A stretch of DNA of 64,000 nt from NCBI GenBank assembly GCA_040217195.1, contig JAVJNR010000004.1, positions 96,001-160,000 of the forward strand. The letters run 5' to 3'. How positions within the stretch are numbered: the stretch's first letter is position 1; every line of letters starts with the position of its first letter. This DNA is from Leptospiraceae bacterium. GTDB lineage: Bacteria; Spirochaetota; Leptospiria; Leptospirales; Leptonemataceae. The notes beneath the pieces were generated by a model. It did no database searches. It was not told the origin of the DNA and was given only the letters and a program-made list of their open reading frames with translations. Positions 18,629 through 25,533 of the stretch are shown here, one piece after another. The position numbers and the translations under genes are program-made.

Positions 18629-20494
18629 ATGTCCACTTTACAGTCGGAAACTAAAACCAGTCGAGTAACTACAGCCATTGTTCGATTCGCCGGAGATTCC
18701 GGTGATGGAATGCAGCTGGCAGGAATGCAATTCACCAAAGCCACAGGAATCGCAGGAAACGATCTAATGACCTTTCCCGATTTCCCGGCTGAAATCCGTG
18801 CTCCCCAGGGAACCATGGCCGGAGTATCCGGATTTCAAATTCACTTTGGTAGCGATCATATTCATACTCCCGGAGATCGGGTGGATGTGCTGGTGGCCAT
18901 GAACCCTGCCGCCTTAAAAGCCAACCTCAAGGATCTGCGCCATGGAGGAACCCTCATTGTCAATACCAACGCTTTTGATGAACGGGCTCTTGCAAAGGTG
19001 CAGTATGATTCCAATCCGCTGGAAGATCCCCAGCTTCGCAGTGATTATAACGTGGTGGAAGCTCCCATTTCGGACCTGAACAAAACCGCTCTGGAAGATT
19101 TGAATCTTACGGCCAAAGAGGTGGATCGATCCAAGAATTTTTTTGCTCTGGGCATTACCTTCTGGTTATTCCAGAGAGATATGCAACCTACCATGGACTG
19201 GATTGCCAGTAAATTTCGCAATCATCCCAAGATCCAGCAAGCCAATGAAAGAGTGCTGAAAGCCGGTTATAACTTCGCAGAAACCTGTGAGTTGTTTCAA
19301 AATCGATACGAATTGACCCGTGCCGAATTTGATCCAGGCACCTACAGAAACATTACCGGGAATACGGCGATGGCCATTGGCCTTGCAGCGGCGGCTCACC
19401 TGGCAGATCTACCCATGTTGTATGCAGGCTATCCGATTACTCCTGCATCGGACATCCTCCATGAGATGGCCCGATATAAGAACTATGGAGTAAAGACATT
19501 CCAGGCCGAAGATGAAATCGCCGCTGTATGCGCTGCCATCGGTGCCTCATACGGTGGCACCATTGGAGTCACTGCCTCCTCCGGACCTGGAATCGCACTG
19601 AAGTCAGAAGCCATTAACCTGGCAGTGATGACAGAACTGCCATTGGTCGTCATCAATGTTCAGAGAGCCGGTCCATCCACTGGAATGCCTACCAAGACCG
19701 AGCAGGCAGATCTACTCCAGGTAATGTATGGCAGAAATGGCGAAAGCCCGGTAGCGATTCTGGCTCCATCGCGCCCCTCGGATTGCTTCTCCATAGCCAT
19801 TGAGGCGGTTCGATTGGCTCTTCTCTATATGACTCCGGTATTTATCCTGAGCGATGGCTACCTTGCAAACGGCTCAGAGCCCTGGAAGTTACCTCATCTG
19901 GCTGATCTACCCAAAATCAAAAAGCACTTTGTGCCCGAAGATGCAGATCCGGCCACCTTCCATGCATATGATCGAGATCCAGAAACCCTATCAAGGTTCT
20001 GGCCCGTTCCAGGCAGACCGGGCTTTGAGCATCGTATTGGAGGAATTGAGAAGGATTCCATTACCGGCAACATTAGCTATGATCCGGACAACCACCATAG
20101 AATGGTTGAAATTCGGCATAAAAGAATTGAAGGAATTGCTCAGAGCATTCCAGAACAGGAAGTTTTTGGAGATGAATCCGGAGATGTACTGATGCTTGGT
20201 TGGGGCTCCACCTACGGTTCTATTCGAACAGCCGTAGAGCATATGCGCGACCAGGGACATTCTGTATCCCATGCCCATCTGCAGTATATCAACCCGCTTC
20301 CGCGAAACCTGGAGAGCATTCTACGAAAATTTAAGAAAGTCATAATGCCAGAAATCAATACCGGACAACTGGCCATGATTCTACGTTCCAAATACTTGCT
20401 GGATATAGAACCATTCAGTAAGGTAAGAGGAAGGCCCATTAGCGTGGCGGACCTGGAAGATAAGATTGAAAGCACCATTAAAGGGCTGAGCTAA
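18629..20494 (+). CDS. korA: 2-oxoacid:ferredoxin oxidoreductase alpha subunit (with fused gamma domain)
   Basis: AGDSGDGMQ, PAEIRAP, YPITP, QAEDE, QRAGPSTG motifs. Confidence 0.93.
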   Translation: MSTLQSETKTSRVTTAIVRFAGDSGDGMQLAGMQFTKATGIAGNDLMTFPDFPAEIRAPQGTMAGVSGFQIHFGSDHIHTPGDRVDVLVAMNPAALKANLKDLRHGGTLIVNTNAFDERALAKVQYDSNPLEDPQLRSDYNVVEAPISDLNKTALEDLNLTAKEVDRSKNFFALGITFWLFQRDMQPTMDWIASKFRNHPKIQQANERVLKAGYNFAETCELFQNRYELTRAEFDPGTYRNITGNTAMAIGLAAAAHLADLPMLYAGYPITPASDILHEMARYKNYGVKTFQAEDEIAAVCAAIGASYGGTIGVTASSGPGIALKSEAINLAVMTELPLVVINVQRAGPSTGMPTKTEQADLLQVMYGRNGESPVAILAPSRPSDCFSIAIEAVRLALLYMTPVFILSDGYLANGSEPWKLPHLADLPKIKKHFVPEDADPATFHAYDRDPETLSRFWPVPGRPGFEHRIGGIEKDSITGNISYDPDNHHRMVEIRHKRIEGIAQSIPEQEVFGDESGDVLMLGWGSTYGSIRTAVEHMRDQGHSVSHAHLQYINPLPRNLESILRKFKKVIMPEINTGQLAMILRSKYLLDIEPFSKVRGRPISVADLEDKIESTIKGLS

Positions 20495-20506
20495 GGAGAA
20501 ATACCA

Positions 20507-21517
20507 GTGAGTAATCCAACTACATTAACAAAAAAAGATTTCACTTCGGACCAGGAAGTCCGCTGGTGCCCTGGCTGCGGTGACTACGCCATTCTTTCTG
20601 CAATTCAGAAAACCATGCCCGAGCTGGGACTGCCCAGAGAAGACATTGTTTTCGTTTCGGGTATTGGCTGTTCCTCTCGGTTTCCTTACTACATGAACAC
20701 CTATGGCTTTCATACAATTCATGGTAGGGCACCGGCCATTGCCAGTGGCCTGAAACTGATGCGACCAGAACTTAGCGTATGGATGATTACCGGCGATGGG
20801 GATGCACTTTCCATCGGTGGAAATCATTTGATCCACATTCTGCGTCGTAATCTGGACATCAATATTCTGCTCTTTAACAATCAGATCTATGGTCTGACCA
20901 AAGGTCAGTACTCCCCTACCAGCAAGGCAGGGACGGTTGCCAAGTCCACACCGGAAGGTTCTCTGGATCATCCATTTTCGGCTCTGTCTCTGGCCATCGG
21001 GGCCGGAGCAACCTTTGCGGCCAGAGTACATGATAAGGACATGAAAATGATGACCGATGTGTTCAAAGCTGCCTACGAACACAAAGGAACCTCATTCGTT
21101 GAAATCTATCAGAATTGCGTAATCTTTAACGATGGAGTTTTCGACGAGTCTGTATCCAAGGATACCCGGCAGGAACATACCATTTATCTGCAGGACAAGA
21201 AGCCCATGCTTTTTGGCCAGGAGCAGGACAAAGGTCTGTTGCTGGAAGGGTATCAGGCCAGGGTAGTTCCTTCAGAGGATGCCACGGATGCAGTAACCAT
21301 CCACGATGCATCCCGGGAAGACCCATCCTTCGCTTTCGCTCTGGCTCAACTTGATCGTCCCCACTTCCCGGTTCCCATGGGCATCCTTCGACAGGTTGAA
21401 AGACCTGTGTATGAGGAGCTGGTTCAGCATCAGGTTGATACAGTCGTGGACAAAAAAGGTAAGGGAGATCTGGAAGCCTTGATACATTCCGGAGATACCT
21501 GGGAAATTAAGAACTAA
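20507..21517 (+). CDS. korB: 2-oxoacid:ferredoxin oxidoreductase beta subunit
   Basis: WCPGCGD, SGIGCSS, IHGR, GDGD...NNQIYGLTKGQ; SD AAGGAG before GTG. Confidence 0.94.
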   Translation: MSNPTTLTKKDFTSDQEVRWCPGCGDYAILSAIQKTMPELGLPREDIVFVSGIGCSSRFPYYMNTYGFHTIHGRAPAIASGLKLMRPELSVWMITGDGDALSIGGNHLIHILRRNLDINILLFNNQIYGLTKGQYSPTSKAGTVAKSTPEGSLDHPFSALSLAIGAGATFAARVHDKDMKMMTDVFKAAYEHKGTSFVEIYQNCVIFNDGVFDESVSKDTRQEHTIYLQDKKPMLFGQEQDKGLLLEGYQARVVPSEDATDAVTIHDASREDPSFAFALAQLDRPHFPVPMGILRQVERPVYEELVQHQVDTVVDKKGKGDLEALIHSGDTWEIKN

Positions 21518-21527
21518 CCTCGCCCTC

Positions 21528-21550
21528 CAGGGCCTCAAAGGCCCTGTTTT
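21528..21550 (+). terminator. Rho-independent terminator after korB
   Basis: CAGGGCCT-caa-AGGCCCTG followed by TTTT. Confidence 0.7.
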
Positions 21551-21666
21551 CCCATTTTTTTTATCTGTGGAGCCCCGCTCTCTGATTTTTTACTATGCAA
21601 GCAAAAGTTGCTTGCTTACTTGCACTGAAATTCGCGCATGCGAAATTCCATTTGGAGGGAGGTGAA

Positions 21667-22083
21667 ATGGAAGATCCGCTCGGTGAACACTACATCATTG
21701 AACTATACGAGTGCAGTCATGAAGTACTGGATAATCTCGAACAGGTTCAAACAACCCTGCTGGATGCAGCAGATATATCGGGAGCTACGATCGTAGATCA
21801 AAGGTTCCACAAATTCAGTCCGCAGGGAGTTTCAGGAGTGGTGGTTATCGCCGAATCCCACCTGAGCATCCACACCTGGCCAGAGCTCGGCTATGCAGCT
21901 CTGGATCTATTTACTTGCAGTAAGGATATGGACATCCAGAAGGCACTGGATCTGCTCAAGCAGGTCTTTAAGCCAGGAGACATGGTCGTTGAATACATTC
22001 AGCGCGGTCTAATGGATCCAACCTATCGCAAGAATCAAAGACTACACCAATACAGGCAGGCCCTGGCGGCCGGTCGACAGTAA
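21667..22083 (+). CDS. speD: S-adenosylmethionine decarboxylase proenzyme (class 1B)
   Basis: LGEHYIIELY, FSPQGVSGVVVIAE|SHLSIHTWPELGYAALDLFTC; SD GGAGGT before ATG 21667. Confidence 0.93.
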   Translation: MEDPLGEHYIIELYECSHEVLDNLEQVQTTLLDAADISGATIVDQRFHKFSPQGVSGVVVIAESHLSIHTWPELGYAALDLFTCSKDMDIQKALDLLKQVFKPGDMVVEYIQRGLMDPTYRKNQRLHQYRQALAAGRQ

Positions 22084-22094
22084 GGAGGGCAGAC

Positions 22095-22997
22095 ATGCTT
22101 GTTGCTACCAAGAAAGTACAATCTCATCTGTCCGATGCTGCCGAAATGCGGCAATCAGCGGTTTCTGGAAGTGGTGTGTTTGCCACAAGGTCCATCAAGA
22201 AAGATGAGCTTGTGGCCCTATGGGGTGGTACCATCTACCGAGAGGATCAACTGGAATCACTTCCTTCCGAGCTTCGTCATTACCTGTTGCAGGTAGACGA
22301 AACTCTATACATTGGCCCGTCCGACCTTGAGAATGTGGACGATTCAGAGTTCTTCAATCATTCCTGCGAACCCAATCTGGGCTTCAAAGGACAGGTGGCC
22401 CTGGTTGCCATGCGAGACATTGAAGCAGGCGAAGAGCTGACTTTCGACTATGCAATGGCCGAAACCTACGATCAGGAATTTTTCTGTGGTTGTGGTTCGG
22501 ATCTGTGTCGAGGTAACATTCGTGGAACGGACCCGCATCTGCCACAACTCCAGAAGCGGTATCAGGGATACTTCAGTTCATGGCTGGAGAAAAAACTGAA
22601 TGTAAAACCAGAAGACCTGGCAGGAAATCTTCAATTCGAAGAAACCGGAGCCTGGGGTCTGGTAACAGCTCTGGATTTGCACGATTGCGACGGAGACACG
22701 ATTCGTAGCCGGGAAAAGATCTACGAGTTCACTATTGAGCTATGCGATCGAATCCAGGTAAAAAGATTTGGTGAGCCTACAATTGTTCATTTTGGCGAAG
22801 ATGAGCGAGTGGCGGGTTACTCTCTGGTTCAGCTAATTGAAACATCTCTGGTAAGCGGTCACTTTGCCAATGCAACGAACCGAGTCTATCTGGATGTGTT
22901 CAGCTGTGCCTGGTACAATCCAACGGAAATTGTTAAGTTTGCGGCGGACTATTTTGGCGCTCGCGACTATAACGTAAATATCTATCTGCGTCACTGA
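22095..22997 (+). CDS. SET/post-SET methyltransferase fused to a SpeD-like (AdoMetDC-fold) pyruvoyl domain
   Basis: SGSGVFA, FFNHSCEPN, GEELTFDY, CGCGSDLC; then WGLVTALDLHDC...GYSLVQLIETSLVSGH...YLDVFSC; SD AAGGAGG. Confidence 0.88.
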   Translation: MLVATKKVQSHLSDAAEMRQSAVSGSGVFATRSIKKDELVALWGGTIYREDQLESLPSELRHYLLQVDETLYIGPSDLENVDDSEFFNHSCEPNLGFKGQVALVAMRDIEAGEELTFDYAMAETYDQEFFCGCGSDLCRGNIRGTDPHLPQLQKRYQGYFSSWLEKKLNVKPEDLAGNLQFEETGAWGLVTALDLHDCDGDTIRSREKIYEFTIELCDRIQVKRFGEPTIVHFGEDERVAGYSLVQLIETSLVSGHFANATNRVYLDVFSCAWYNPTEIVKFAADYFGARDYNVNIYLRH

Positions 22998-23028
22998 TTG
23001 CCCTGGCATATCGGAGACTTTTAATCGT

Positions 23029-23050
23029 GGGCCCTGTTCAGGGCCCTTTT
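23029..23050 (+). terminator. Rho-independent terminator closing the speD / SET-SpeD operon
   Basis: GGGCCCTG-tt-CAGGGCCC then TTTT. Confidence 0.75.
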
Positions 23051-23097
23051 CATTTTCGATCAGTTCTGTCTTTCATTCAAATTCTGCAATTCTAAGC

Positions 23098-25533
23098 CTA
23101 TTTTCGAATGTAGGCACCTTCAATGGCTTCAGCATTCATGGGACGACCAAATAGAAATCCCTGTCCTTCATTACAGCCTGAATCCACCAGATGCATTCTC
23201 TGGTCCTCGTTTTCGATTCCTTCCGCTATAACTGAAAAGCCCAGGTTCTTCCCCAGGGCAACAATCGCTGCTGAAATCGCCGACAGACTTGAGTCATCGG
23301 GTAATCCCTGAATAAAGGATCGGTCGATTTTCAGCCTGTCGACCGGCAAATCCCTTAAATAGCTTAGCGAAGAGTAGCCCACTCCAAAGTCATCAATGGC
23401 AATTCTTACTCCCTGACTGCGTAATAGATGCAGCTGTTCCAAAATCGAGGATTCCAGGCCAATCAATGAATTCTCGGTGATTTCAATCTCTAGCTTTTCC
23501 GGTGGCAGTCCAGTTTCCTTTAAGATTGCCATTACCCGGGAGGAAAAATCTCCGTTCTGAATCTGCACAGGCGAAGCGTTAACAGCAATGCAGTCGATGT
23601 GCATTCCCATGGACAACCAGGTCCGGGTTTGTCTGCAGGCCTCTTCCAGTACCCATTCTCCCAGCGGAATAATGAGGCCCAGTTGCTCGGCCACTGGAAT
23701 AAACTCATCTGGAGGAATCAGTGTATCTTCAGTTTTCCATCGAACCAGTGCTTCCAGTCCTAGAAGAGCGCCATTCACAAGATCTATTTGCGGTTGATAG
23801 TGCAAAATGAATTCATTGTGCTGCAATGCCTTTCGCAGTTCCGAACCCAGGTGAATTCTGCGCATTGCTTCATCGGTGAGATCCTGACTGAAGAATCTGT
23901 ATCGCATGGAGTCTTTTTTGGCACGATACATGGCAGTATCTGCCTGCTGAATCAATTCCTCAACGGTTGATCCATGATCCGGATACATGCTCATACCCAG
24001 ACTGGCCGATATGGCCACTTTTCGATCTCCAAGAGTAAATGGCTCCTCCATGGCCTGCACCAGATCATCGGCCACAAGAGCCACTTCACCGGCGGACTGA
24101 GGTCCGGGCACCAGAACCAGAAATTCATCGCCTCCGAACCGGGCCAGAGTCTGATCCGAACGTATGGCCTCGCTCAGCCTGGCGCCCACATCTCGCAGCA
24201 GTCGATCTCCGGTGGGATGGCCCAGGCTATCATTCACATCCTTGAAGTTATTCAGATCTAGAAAAATGATGCCTACCTTATCGCCCATTTTGTCTGCCAG
24301 GGTCATCGCCTGCCCAAGACGCTCTTCGAATAGAAGCCGATTGGACAGACCTGTTAGCGGATCTGAATGGGCCATTCGCTCCAATTTATGCTGATAATCT
24401 TTGATGCTTGAAATATCTGAAAAGATAGCCAGATACTGGATCACGTCTCCCTGGCTGTTTCGTACTTCTGTGACTGTAGATAGTTCAGGAAAGATACTTC
24501 CATCCTTTCTGCGATTCCAGATTTCTCCGCTCCAGTAGCCTTTACTGGAAAGCGCAGCCCACATGGATTCATAAAAGGCTTTACTGTGAAAACCGCTGGC
24601 CAGCAGTCTAGGGTTTCGTCCCAGAACGTCCTGCTCGGAATAGCCAGTAATTCTGGTAAATGCACGATTCACGGCAACAATGCGAACATCCGCATCAGTA
24701 ATCAGTATTCCTTCCTGGGTATGCTCGAAAACGGCTGCTGCCTGTCTTAACTGGCTTTCCTGCTTCTTGAGATCAGAGATATCTTCAACAATACCATCGA
24801 ATACTTGTCTGCCATCGCTGGTTAATCGAGTACTGGCCGTTATCGCAATCCAGATTGCTCTTCCCCTCAATGTCCTTAGTTTTAGCTCACTACGTCTCAC
24901 AGATCCATGGGCCAGAACTTCTTCTGAGAATTTGGCCCGATCGTCCGGATCCTCATAAAGCTCGAATGGACTGTGCTTCAAAAAATCTTCAACCGAATCT
25001 GCTTCAAAGATCCGTGCCATGGCAGGATTGGCTTCTAAAAATCTTCCATGAACTCCCGGTTCATTACGATACACTCCCACGGGCAATGCATCGAATAGGT
25101 CTTTGTACTCTATAAGGCTTTGCTGTAGAATCTTAGGTTCGGTATAATCATGTATAATAGAATGAAGATAGCGCTTACCCAGAATCTCGACCGGACCTGA
25201 ATAGACCTTCACGAAACGTATATCGCCCGATGAAGTTCGATGCTTGAATTCAAAATAGCGACGCTCCTCCAGGTGAGCCCGTTGCATTTCCGCAGCTACC
25301 TCTTCTGGAGGTAATTGATTGATATCCTGAATTCGCATGGACCGGAATTCATCCAGGCTGTAGCCGTAGAAATCCTGAGCGGCCGGGTTCGCATCCACGA
25401 TGCTGCCAGTCTCTGGATCAATCAGTAGTTTGGGAGCTGTATTCCTTGTGAACATTTCATGGTAAATGAACACAAAGTCCTGCCGGGACTCATCGGCACC
25501 ATTAAGAAAATCTGGCGAATTATCAAGATTCAT
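23098..25533 (-). CDS. PAS(x3)-GGDEF-EAL c-di-GMP enzyme
   Basis: Three PAS/PAC repeats, [36 protein letters not shown]. Confidence 0.95.

Follow-up and report, generated by a model that had tools for sequence, protein, structure and literature searches.

A SET-domain module fused to a predicted pyruvoyl-dependent ornithine decarboxylase is encoded next to speD in Leptospirales

Introduction

Protein-lysine methylation is the default activity of SET domains. In 2011 Michael reportedly described fusions of S-adenosylmethionine decarboxylase (AdoMetDC) and aminopropyltransferase in diatoms, some of them with a histone N-methyltransferase domain, for which a role in both the synthesis and the N-methylation of long-chain polyamines was proposed. 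The proposal concerning these AdoMetDC-aminopropyltransferase-methyltransferase proteins is quoted in PMC3820600. A SET domain with a free amino acid as substrate is that of BurB from Burkholderia thailandensis (PDB 9l4t; PMC12542666), a methionine S-methyltransferase of DMSP methylation in whose pathway a decarboxylase is the next enzyme.

SpeDC is an L-ornithine decarboxylase with a pyruvoyl cofactor that arose by neofunctionalisation of a class 1b AdoMetDC (Li, Liang, Phillips and Michael, JBC 2023, PMC10407285). According to that paper, its hallmarks are S63, H68 and C83 (T. maritima numbering) together with diagnostic Gln, Thr, Phe and Tyr residues in the central region. Ornithine decarboxylase activity was validated there for nine proteins, seven of them stand-alone SpeDCs and two SpeD-SpeDC fusions, none of which acted on arginine or lysine; an E. 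coli speD mutant did not regain spermidine when given validated SpeDCs, and a SpeD-SpeDC fusion bearing an Ala substitution at S229 had no ornithine decarboxylase activity. The paper notes "a large number of homologs" of SpeDC in Spirochaetota, and neither its text nor the supplement examined makes mention of SET, Leptospira or Leptonema.

Here we describe a locus of Leptospirales in which speD is followed by a gene encoding a SET module joined to a SpeDC-type domain. The locus lies in a window of 64,000 nucleotides, the whole stretch of DNA analysed (C1:96001-160000). What is new is the fusion of SET to SpeDC in this order, SpeDC itself having been described already; as the initial annotation had supposed, our literature searches found no description of a SET::SpeDC fusion.

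Results

The gene pair and its flanking signals

The initial annotation had recorded two co-directional genes 11 nt apart, speD and then a fusion of a SET domain with an AdoMetDC-fold domain, and the coordinates and Pfam matches confirmed this anatomy. All features given here are on the + strand. Gene 1 (speD, 21667-22083) encodes 138 amino acids; its start was taken at 21667, directly 3' of the ribosome-binding site GGAGGGAGG (21654-21662), and the first ATG in frame is at 21595. An 11-nt spacer carrying the AGGAGG ribosome-binding site of gene 2 (22084-22094) separates it from gene 2 (22095-22997), a gene of 300 codons made up of a SET methyltransferase module (aa 1-170, 22095-22604), a linker (aa 171-184, 22605-22646) and a SpeDC-type domain (aa 185-300 and the stop codon, 22647-22997).

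Between gene 1 and gene 2 the terminator scan found nothing on the + strand, and the two genes are probably co-transcribed, judging from their arrangement. The pair had been annotated as bounded by terminators on both sides. On the downstream side this was borne out by the same scan, which called an intrinsic terminator, GGGCCCTGTTCAGGGCCC with a T run (23029-23056; hairpin 23029-23046), at the end of the two-gene operon; the upstream terminator-like hairpin (21528-21562) is present in the sequence, where it was seen by eye, but absent from the consensus scan. It has a 7-bp stem (CAGGGCC/GGCCCTG, 21528-21534 and 21540-21546), a TCAAA loop and a T-rich tail, and closes the genes for a 2-oxoacid:ferredoxin oxidoreductase. 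An Rfam scan of 21300-23300 returned no riboswitch, the only matches being two sub-threshold chance hits to eukaryotic families. The RNA runs covered little of the stretch (shares of 0.05-0.09).

Metagenome contigs of runs X1 (22409-23060) and X5 (22385-22805), from two studies, span the junction between SET and SpeDC and show no indels there; run X1 may come from the source sample itself. Since such contigs bridge the junction and the fusion recurs in relatives, an assembly artefact or a singleton, either of which had been named as an outcome that would undo the proposal, can be set aside. The source organism is present in marine metagenomes.

Gene 1 is a class 1b AdoMetDC by sequence

The gene 1 product matched PF02675 at 140.8 bits and the AdoMetDC equivalog TIGR03330 at 144.1 bits, well above the cut-off of 75.65. 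It carries the processing serine in an AE|SH motif, with His at +5, Pro at +8 and Cys at +20, a residue pattern identical to that of 30/30 SpeD rows of our alignment, and its position in the tree is within the SpeD clade. The equivalog score, the E|S-H motif, the His, Pro and Cys residues and the occurrence of speE in the genome are all those of a bona fide class 1b AdoMetDC. By these features gene 1 is a class 1b AdoMetDC, in agreement with its earlier designation as a canonical one.

The C-terminal domain of gene 2 has the residues of SpeDC

The C-terminal domain of gene 2 had been taken for a second AdoMetDC of unexplained role. It matched PF02675 over aa 193-299 (67.5 bits), and its model superimposed on T. 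maritima AdoMetDC (1tmi) with a TM score of 0.85 and an rmsd of 2.0, indicating the class 1b AdoMetDC fold; TIGR03330, however, scored just 17.6 bits against the cut-off of 75.65. Relative to the processing serine, all 27 fusion rows of the alignment have Q(-5), T(-1), S, H(+5), F(+6), Y(+14) and C(+20), the counterparts of Q246, T250, S251, H256, F257, Y265 and C271 in gene 2. At the diagnostic positions, which were inferred from the text of Li et al. (2023), the 47 SpeDC rows have Gln in 47, Thr in 47, Phe in 46 and Tyr in 45, and the SpeD rows (n=30) have E(-1), T/A(+6), P(+8) and A(+14), none of the 30 carrying the SpeDC diagnostic residues there. Among 86 fusion representatives S251, H256 and C271 are invariant (86/86), and the SpeDC key residues as a whole are essentially so, two positions varying in a few rows and one row being incomplete.

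A quick maximum-likelihood tree of 105 rows, which covered relatives from Desulfotignum, Kaiserbacteria and Methanomicrobia in place of the experimentally validated SpeDC proteins themselves, separated SpeD (31 rows) from SpeDC together with the fusion domains (74 rows) with 100% SH-aLRT support. We also compared the domain with a SpeD-SpeDC fusion of Desulfotignum sp., MAG records of which served as stand-ins for the D. phosphitoxidans protein: identity to the SpeDC half was 46% (62/136, E 2e-44), but the domain's own SpeD, encoded by gene 1, matched it over 11/32 residues only. In 10/10 Desulfotignum fusions of 278 aa, the serine of "ESH" is residue 79 and that of "ETS" is residue 229, equal to the published S79 and S229, which supports the SpeDC identity. 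Stand-alone SpeDCs from Kaiserbacteria, Methanomicrobia and others are 51-63% identical to the gene 2 domain. These comparisons indicate that the domain is most likely a SpeDC, that is, a pyruvoyl-dependent L-ornithine decarboxylase, instead of a second AdoMetDC; on homology, it is predicted to be specific for ornithine and to cleave itself at codons T250-S251 (22842-22847).

Polyamine genes of the genome and order of the spe genes

As the initial annotation had noted, speE is missing from both the operon and the window: no PF01564 match lies within the window, and the three matches in the genome (C5:36150, C1:244981 and C1:189289) are all outside it. The whole-genome search for speE that had been proposed was carried out and found a bona fide speE on contig C5 (329.5 bits; cut-off 260). 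With speE in the genome, and downstream of the fusion in Leptospira, the use of decarboxylated SAM (dcSAM) is largely accounted for as far as the decarboxylase half is concerned, an outcome that the initial annotation had named as evidence against a new system.

Among the fusion loci, speD is directly upstream in 17/17, and in five Leptospira loci speE is directly downstream, giving the order speD, SET::speDC, speE. A further 19 loci have the order speD-speDC-speE with a stand-alone SpeDC. In the source genome, which is 93.7% complete so that absences are provisional, there was no match to the arginase/agmatinase, agmatine deiminase or PvlArgDC families, and lysA is the sole PF02784 protein. 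A further decarboxylase, of 500 aa and of the OKR_DC_1 family, is encoded at C1:492461, and SpeDC is therefore not necessarily the only diamine route.

The SET module of gene 2

A complete SET domain with a zinc-binding post-SET segment had been reported in gene 2, and every motif named was found. PF00856 matched aa 25-119 with 62.3 bits, and G25-x-G27, N88-H-S-C-E-P-N94, E113-E-L-T-F-D-Y119 and the post-SET C131-x-C133-x4-C138 are all present; the module ends in a conserved helical tail, LPxLQxRYxGYFS. Its fold, the GxG, NHSCxPN and ELxFDY motifs and the CxCx4C zinc site together identify a SET domain (class V). The model of the module has a pLDDT mostly above 90, but the linker is the lowest-confidence stretch, with a block mean pLDDT of 56, and the whole gene 2 model reached a pTM of 0.70 despite its two confident domains. 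When the SET module (aa 1-172) and the SpeDC domain (aa 183-300) were modelled as a complex, the prediction scored 0.05 against a mark of 0.32, a value that bears on neither side of the question.

Fold matches of the module were ASH1L, NSD1, MLL1 and BurB, down to E 2.5e-10, and the top sequence matches among solved structures were histone lysine methyltransferases, to E 2.8e-12. BurB aligned by sequence only in part (aa 84-145, 31.5 bits, E 9.3e-7) and scored below the histone methyltransferases; with relatedness confined to that segment, we rejected membership in the BurB-type methionine S-methyltransferases. About 50% identity was seen to stand-alone bacterial SET proteins.

The motifs are intact in 45 of the 86 fusion representatives, gene 2 included; the fusion of Leptonema illini (P0021) likewise has intact SET motifs. 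In 31/86, the Leptospira-type proteins, the SET domain is degenerate: it has lost the residues for SAM binding and catalysis as well as the cysteines of the post-SET motif, but not its full length. Mean pairwise identity of the SET domain is 0.49 in the degenerate group versus 0.47 in the intact group. At that 47% mean identity, N88, H89, Y119 and the three cysteines are at least 90% conserved among the 45 intact proteins, which argues for selection for catalysis in that lineage; the degenerate SET of the other 31 argues that methyl transfer is dispensable for the decarboxylase.

Distribution of the fusion and of its SET relatives

Database entries name the fusion gene either "S-adenosylmethionine decarboxylase" or "SET domain protein-lysine N-methyltransferase". 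The fusion, for which a search had been suggested together with an inspection of neighbourhoods for speD, is present in 84/151 sampled genomes of Leptospirales, in two families; the loci with an adjoining speD are the 17 described above. A search at the 50% cluster level returned three full-length SET::SpeDC representatives (P0006, P0051 and P0125), and in this search and a Pfam scan of its 14 odd-length matches no further Pfam-named domain was found fused to SpeDC. In a quick SpeDC tree the intact-SET group (16 rows) stood apart from the Leptospira group (11 rows) with a branch support of 96%; a quick SET tree was poorly resolved, and some of its "stand-alone" rows may be fusion fragments.

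Around the genes for stand-alone SET proteins, SpeD- or SpeE-like genes were near in only 2 of 70 loci (L128 and L163). In Anaerolineales the SET genes repeatedly have a YdcS/PotB-like ABC transporter nearby, which we read as synteny within one lineage and do not count as evidence. At one Chitinophagaceae locus (L076), speDC, a SET gene and an EamA-like gene are overlapping neighbours; SpeDC adjoins none of the 20 closest relatives of that SET protein (L169-L188), and the locus is thus a singleton.

Discussion

Based on the domain identities, the catalytic and diagnostic residues, the clade, the gene order and the genome inventory, it is very probable that the two-gene operon makes both substrates of spermidine synthase, putrescine and dcSAM. 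SpeD would process itself at E|S and decarboxylate SAM to dcSAM, and the gene 2 proenzyme would cleave itself between T250 and S251, S251 becoming the pyruvoyl group, to give a beta chain of aa 1-250 (SET and the N-terminal part of SpeDC) and an alpha chain of 50 aa. The SpeDC domain would then convert L-ornithine to putrescine, from which, with dcSAM, SpeE encoded on contig C5 would form spermidine. The ancestral order was very probably speD-speDC-speE, which persists with a stand-alone SpeDC in other Spirochaetota and in other phyla, and in Leptospirales a SET domain would have been added N-terminally to SpeDC. The re-annotated fusion gene likely supplies the ornithine decarboxylase step of spermidine synthesis in Leptospirales, pathogenic Leptospira included, and would close an apparent gap in polyamine synthesis of the order.

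As for the SET module, our leading guess, which we put forward as a possibility, is that it is a small-molecule N-methyltransferase for an amine of the polyamine pathway (putrescine, ornithine or spermidine). In the source organism the module would be catalytically competent, sit on a flexible linker and stay with the beta chain after cleavage, and it would transfer methyl groups from SAM to the nitrogen of a primary amine belonging to this pathway. The acceptor would be putrescine, which the fused domain is predicted to produce and which resembles the side chain of lysine, or else ornithine or spermidine; in the Leptospira-type proteins the methyltransferase function would have been lost and the domain retained, presumably for a structural role. 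The intact motifs in 45/86 fusions, the occurrence of the fusion in 84/151 genomes, the precedent of BurB and the Chitinophagaceae locus count in favour of this guess. Against it count the degenerate SET in 31/86 fusions, the scarcity of polyamine genes near stand-alone SET loci (2/70), the absence of an adjoining SpeDC in the 20 Chitinophagaceae relatives, and the fact that histone lysine methyltransferases are the best matches among known structures, BurB matching only in part. Our literature search on Leptospira polyamines returned nothing relevant. We know of no report of N-methylated polyamines from spirochaetes.

If the SET module does methylate polyamines, this would be new chemistry for the SET fold, and basal Leptospirales (such as the source marine lineage and Leptonema) would make N-methylated polyamines. 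As far as we know, no SET domain has previously been shown to methylate the nitrogen of a free amine and no bacterial enzyme for N-methyl polyamines has been described, so that this would be the first of either kind, and the diatom long-chain-polyamine proposal would gain weight.

We consider two other roles for the SET module, both rather unlikely. With the SpeDC half an ornithine decarboxylase as above, the module might be a protein-lysine methyltransferase directed at SpeD, at SpeE, at an unrelated protein or, in auto-regulation by the SAM level, at the SpeDC domain itself; fusion would then serve co-expression or regulation and not polyamine chemistry. The matches to MLL1, ASH1L and NSD lysine methyltransferases, at the top in both sequence and fold, and the full lysine-methyltransferase motif set with its post-SET zinc site are as expected of such an enzyme, and the 68/70 stand-alone SET loci without polyamine genes suggest a general target outside the polyamines. 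However, a fusion to a small-molecule enzyme that is stable in two families is rather what one sees with steps of a single pathway, we identified no lysine as a candidate target, and BurB illustrates that an enzyme with SET motifs need not act on a protein.

The second of these roles is a mainly non-catalytic one, structural or regulatory (folding, oligomerisation, self-processing, or a SAM/SAH sensor tuning putrescine), with vestigial methyl transfer. It fits with the 31/86 fusions that have no SAM-binding or catalytic residues and nevertheless keep a full-length and equally conserved domain, and with SpeDC key residues that hardly vary across the 86 fusions. It is hard to reconcile with the conservation of N88, H89, Y119 and the three cysteines in the intact proteins, with the function of stand-alone SpeDCs of about 130 aa that have no SET, and with a model in which a low-confidence linker, not a fixed interface, joins the domains. 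The intact-SET lineage and its degenerate-SET sister lineage provide a natural experiment on the role of a SET domain in a metabolic enzyme.

The remaining readings concern the C-terminal domain, and each is very improbable. The initial annotation had suggested that this domain, as an AdoMetDC-like module acting on SAM or dcSAM, belongs with a SET domain that uses dcSAM or is regulated by it, the two forming a new aminopropyl or methyl modification system; both domains have SAM-related folds and the operon contains no speE, but the TIGR03330 score, the SpeDC residues and clade, the failure of validated SpeDCs to restore spermidine in the E. coli speD mutant, and the speE elsewhere in the genome and adjacent in Leptospira speak against it, and we found no support for either use of dcSAM, rejecting the first on the residues of the C-terminal domain. 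Hardly more credible is a route like DMSP methylation, in which SET would S-methylate methionine and the fused domain would decarboxylate S-methylmethionine, a SAM analogue: a decarboxylase acts after BurB, the organism occurs in marine metagenomes, and S-methylmethionine is not among the substrates that the SpeDC paper gives as tested (L-Arg, L-Orn and L-Lys), but the similarity of the SET module to BurB is weak and partial, the C-terminal domain keeps every SpeDC residue of proven ornithine decarboxylases, the linkage to speD and speE is strict, and the fusion persists in Leptospira although SET is dead there. Lastly, the domain might be a prozyme-like paralogue without catalytic activity that, as known from trypanosomatids, activates SpeD by forming a heterodimer with it; this would suit a paralogous domain encoded beside speD and the existence of SpeD-SpeDC fusions, but the domain does not look dead, Ser, His and Cys being retained in all the fusions, and we rejected this reading as well.

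How, then, does a predicted ornithine decarboxylase joined to SET compare with the systems described to date? The stand-alone relatives of the SET module, proteins of about 165-200 aa from Anaerolineales, Methanoregula and Patescibacteria, share about 50% identity, the post-SET motif and a tail of the form LPxLWxKYxGYFSPYL with it, but they are unfused, with polyamine genes near 2/70 loci, and we found no published function for these bacterial and archaeal proteins. BurB has a matching fold (TM 0.62, normalised to BurB; 28% identity), yet it is an S-methyltransferase, unfused and without a link to polyamines, and its sequence similarity to the module is weak and partial. The diatom fusions join a SET-type methyltransferase to a polyamine enzyme of bacterial origin, as gene 2 does, and are a precedent for the N-methylation idea; they differ in being eukaryotic, in consisting of AdoMetDC and aminopropyltransferase, and in resting on a proposal, whereas gene 2 encodes a predicted ornithine decarboxylase. 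We rejected the diatom-type architecture for gene 2, which has no PF01564 match and whose decarboxylase domain is of the SpeDC type.

SpeDC itself is also among the closest known systems. The C-terminal domain of gene 2 resembles it in fold, in the spacing of Ser, His and Cys, in the residues of the diagnostic set (at the inferred positions), in clade and in the logic of an operon with speD and speE. The validated SpeDCs either stand alone, with a length of about 130 aa, or follow SpeD in a fusion, whereas in gene 2 SpeDC follows a SET module of 170 aa. The SpeD-SpeDC fusions (Desulfotignum phosphitoxidans WP_006968726 and Ca. Omnitrophica), which have two pyruvoyl cofactors, likewise carry SpeDC as the C-terminal half, but their N-terminal partner is SpeD; in gene 2 the partner is SET, and SpeD is encoded by the separate upstream gene. 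SET::SpeDC is thus a third SpeDC architecture beside the stand-alone protein and SpeD::SpeDC.

The speD and SET::speDC genes form a linked pair

Gene 1 (speD; 21667-22083, + strand, 138 aa) and gene 2 (SET::speDC; 22095-22997, + strand, 300 aa) run in the same direction, are each preceded by a strong ribosome-binding site and, as the initial annotation described, have 11 nt between them. The identification of gene 1 as a canonical AdoMetDC, here of class 1b, is borne out by its matches to PF02675 (140.8 bits) and to the NCBIfam equivalog TIGR03330 (144.1 bits; cut-off 75.65). In the gene 2 protein, which source databases name either AdoMetDC or SET lysine methyltransferase, aa 25-119 match the Pfam SET profile (62.3 bits) and aa 193-299 the AdoMet_dc profile (67.5 bits), and the full set of motifs reported for this protein (GxG, NHSCEPN, EELTFDY and CxCx4C) was found. 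In the AlphaFold model (mean pLDDT 92.5, pTM 0.70), a low-confidence linker (aa 171-184) lies between two confident domains.

Terminators had been proposed on both sides of the pair; the downstream one (23029-23046) was recovered in a scan, whereas the upstream hairpin (21528-21546) is seen in the sequence but was not called by the scan. A 2-oxoacid:ferredoxin oxidoreductase pair (alpha and beta, Pfam; 18629-21517) flanks the operon upstream, and a gene for an 811-aa PAS-GGDEF-EAL protein (23098-25533, - strand) converges on the operon terminator. The oxidoreductase genes also lie directly 5' of speD-SET::speDC in five of the eight other loci outside the Leptospira group (L015, L016, L018, L092 and L097); this adjacency may be plain synteny, and a metabolic tie to polyamines is not obvious.

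The concern that the fusion might be an assembly artefact or a singleton was dispelled on both counts: contigs from two coded studies, one possibly the source sample, span the domain junction without indels, and the fusion is widely recurrent among relatives. Three broken copies were observed in MAGs: in one from Leptonemataceae the fusion falls into two ORFs (L099:5001-5773), in a genome from the window's genus an in-frame TGA interrupts it (G079:C3:9167-10023), and at L013:123-530 speD is broken in two. Either sequencing errors or decay could account for them.

The C-terminal domain of gene 2 belongs to the SpeDC family

SpeDC, a pyruvoyl-dependent L-ornithine decarboxylase, is described as having arisen once from class 1b AdoMetDC (Li, Liang, Phillips and Michael, JBC 2023, PMC10407285). 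Seven stand-alone SpeDCs and two SpeD-SpeDC fusions were reported active on L-ornithine and inactive on L-arginine and L-lysine, and stand-alone SpeDC genes did not restore spermidine to an E. coli speD mutant (PMC10407285). The same text gives the equivalents of T. maritima S63, H68 and C83 as processing and catalytic residues, and four residues (Gln, Thr, Phe and Tyr) as diagnostic of SpeDC (PMC10407285). Counting positions relative to the processing Ser in our own rows, we found Q(-5), T(-1), H(+5), F(+6), Y(+14) and C(+20) in 27 of 27 fusion C-domains; together with the Ser, the window protein has Q246, T250, S251, H256, F257, Y265 and C271. Rows of stand-alone or SpeD-fused SpeDC (n=47) carried Q in 47, T in 47, F in 46 and Y in 45 at the positions taken here as diagnostic, whereas SpeD rows of the same spacing (n=30) have E(-1), T or A at +6, P(+8) and A(+14) instead. 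In a quick maximum-likelihood tree built from 105 domains, SpeD (31 rows) separated from SpeDC and the fusion domains (74 rows) with 100% SH-aLRT support.

Desulfotignum sp. fusions of 278 aa, the published length, served as stand-ins for the validated D. phosphitoxidans protein. In 10 of 10, the Ser of 'ESH' falls at residue 79 and that of 'ETS' at residue 229, matching the published S79 and S229; the S229A substitution is reported to have abolished the ornithine decarboxylase activity of the SpeD-SpeDC fusion (PMC10407285). The gene 2 C-domain is 46% identical to the Desulfotignum sp. SpeDC half (62/136, E 2e-44), its alignment with the neighbouring SpeD spans 32 residues only, and on the AdoMetDC equivalog it reaches 17.6 bits, well under the cut-off. 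Superposition of the model on T. maritima AdoMetDC (1tmi) gave a TM of 0.85. Across an alignment of 24 full-length relatives, conservation is much higher in the AdoMetDC-like half, which contains an invariant block (QLIETS..S.HFAN.TN..Y.D.FSC), than in the SET half. We conclude that the decarboxylase half of gene 2 is a new member of the family described in 2023. On this basis S251 is read as the predicted pyruvoyl-forming serine, and self-cleavage between T250 and S251 would, by homology, yield a 250-aa beta chain retaining the SET module and a 50-aa alpha chain.

Three matches from the first protein search (P0091, P0095 and P0099; 276-283 aa) are fusions of SpeD with a domain almost identical to the gene 2 C-domain. 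P0099 (281 aa) pairs an intact SpeDC half with an N-terminal SpeD half that looks degenerate (QSH for ESH and no Cys at +20); Li et al. describe the opposite case, fusions in which SpeDC is the degraded partner (PMC10407285).

Probable place of the operon in the polyamine pathway

Conservation of the fusion beside speD, which the initial annotation proposed to check, is complete in the loci retrieved with the full-length alignment, speD lying directly upstream in 17 of 17; it is also upstream in eight further fusion loci (two on contigs already counted). In five Leptospira loci speE directly follows the fusion, and in two more it lies within a few kb. The order speD-speDC-speE with a stand-alone SpeDC (~130-140 aa) occurs at 19 loci (other Spirochaetota, Acidobacteriota, Aminicenantes and delta-proteobacteria) and probably represents the ancestral operon.

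The window's own genome (4.6 Mb, 93.7% complete) holds no PF02675 genes other than the pair. The initial annotation had noted that speE is missing from the window and proposed a genome-wide search; contig C5 proved to carry a bona fide speE (329.5 bits; cut-off 260). Directly after argH lies another aminopropyltransferase-like gene (G000 C1:244981-245499; L004:1285-2238), which scored 197 bits, under the speE cut-off, and may make a different polyamine. Arginase/agmatinase, agmatine deiminase and PvlArgDC families had no match in this 93.7% complete genome; lysA is its sole PF02784 protein, and its one OKR_DC_1 decarboxylase (500 aa) may be a further source of diamine. In the simplest reading, SpeDC would form putrescine, SpeD dcSAM, and SpeE spermidine. 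Very probably the operon feeds the unlinked SpeE with both precursors of spermidine, a self-processing SpeDC providing the putrescine and SpeD the dcSAM.

Distribution of the fusion and state of the SET motifs

The fusion is a trait of the lineage: of the 151 sampled genomes of the order, 84 had a single match covering both domains, with one further copy split by an in-frame TGA, and both families are represented. One well-sampled genus is mostly without it (a match in 5 of 39 genomes), and a search at the 50% cluster level showed only three full-length representatives. Many SpeDC homologues in Spirochaetota have been remarked on (PMC10407285). We found no description of the SET::SpeDC architecture in the literature searched, which included the text and one supplement of the SpeDC paper and few subscription journals, and the SET fusion is the part left unexplained by existing knowledge.

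We sorted 86 fusion representatives by motif (the window protein and 85 of the 120 matches listed, picked for covering both domains). The SET domain was intact in 45, which keep NHSC, DY and the three post-SET cysteines; degenerate in 31 Leptospira-type proteins of ~285 aa, which lack the post-SET segment as well as most residues for SAM binding and catalysis; and intermediate or truncated in 10. Among themselves the degenerate SET regions are no less conserved than the intact ones (mean pairwise identity 0.49 versus 0.47). The SpeDC key residues are essentially invariant across the 86, two positions varying in a few rows and one row being cut short. Methyl transfer is therefore dispensable for the decarboxylase, yet the SET domain is retained, and in the window's lineage the alignments indicate selection on its catalytic residues. 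In family f2, many genomes whose fused SET is degenerate have a stand-alone SET gene besides (178-190 aa, ~42% identical to the window's SET).

Relatives of the SET module

The SET module shares ~50% identity with a type of stand-alone SET protein (165-200 aa) found commonly in Anaerolineales, Methanoregula and Patescibacteria, and polyamine genes lie near such genes in only 2 of 70 loci. At ~29-35 of the 70 (Anaerolineales, L100-L168), a polyamine-type ABC transporter, with a YdcS-type substrate-binding protein and PotB-like permeases, lies within a few kb, which is probably lineage synteny. In a Chitinophagaceae MAG (L076:4914-6198), a stand-alone speDC, a SET gene (overlapping stop/start) and a gene for a 123-aa EamA-like membrane protein stand in a row, with neither speD nor speE beside them. 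This trio, a singleton among the loci examined, is possibly a mini-cluster for a modified diamine; no SpeDC was found beside the 20 closest relatives of its SET gene. Tandem SET-SET proteins (P0055, P0060, P0121 and ~30 matches of 290-420 aa) are common among relatives of the window's SET, and proteins of ~1050-1265 aa from Pirellulales, Planctomycetaceae and one Chitinophagaceae MAG (L226-L241) carry a related C-terminal SET module.

Possible roles of the SET module and comparison with known systems

Our leading guess, a tentative one, is that the SET module N-methylates an amine of the polyamine pathway. The specific case, methylation of putrescine (or ornithine or spermidine) from the fused partner, is somewhat doubtful; putrescine would be the first candidate acceptor because it mimics the lysine side chain. 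The evidence against a pathway amine is substantial: methyltransferase residues are lost in Leptospira, stand-alone SET relatives are rarely linked to polyamine genes, and the nearest solved structures by sequence are histone methyltransferases. These structures would suit a protein-lysine methyltransferase, a role that we consider unlikely. A mainly structural or SAM-sensing module, consistent with retention of the degenerate SET and at odds with the selection apparent in the window's lineage, seems just as unlikely. The use or sensing of dcSAM by the SET domain, as first suggested, a DMSP-like route, and a prozyme-like dead C-domain, which the conserved SpeDC residues oppose, are all very improbable.

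In sequence and fold, the SET module resembles the lysine methyltransferases MLL1, ASH1L and NSD. Possible N-methylation of long-chain polyamines by diatom fusions was reportedly proposed by Michael in 2011. The diatom proteins are AdoMetDC-aminopropyltransferase fusions with a histone-methyltransferase domain, and the proposal is relayed second-hand in PMC3820600. The SET module also matches BurB (9l4t; TM 0.62 normalised to BurB), a bacterial SET enzyme described as S-methylating free methionine, and the enzyme that follows BurB in its pathway is a decarboxylase (PMC12542666).
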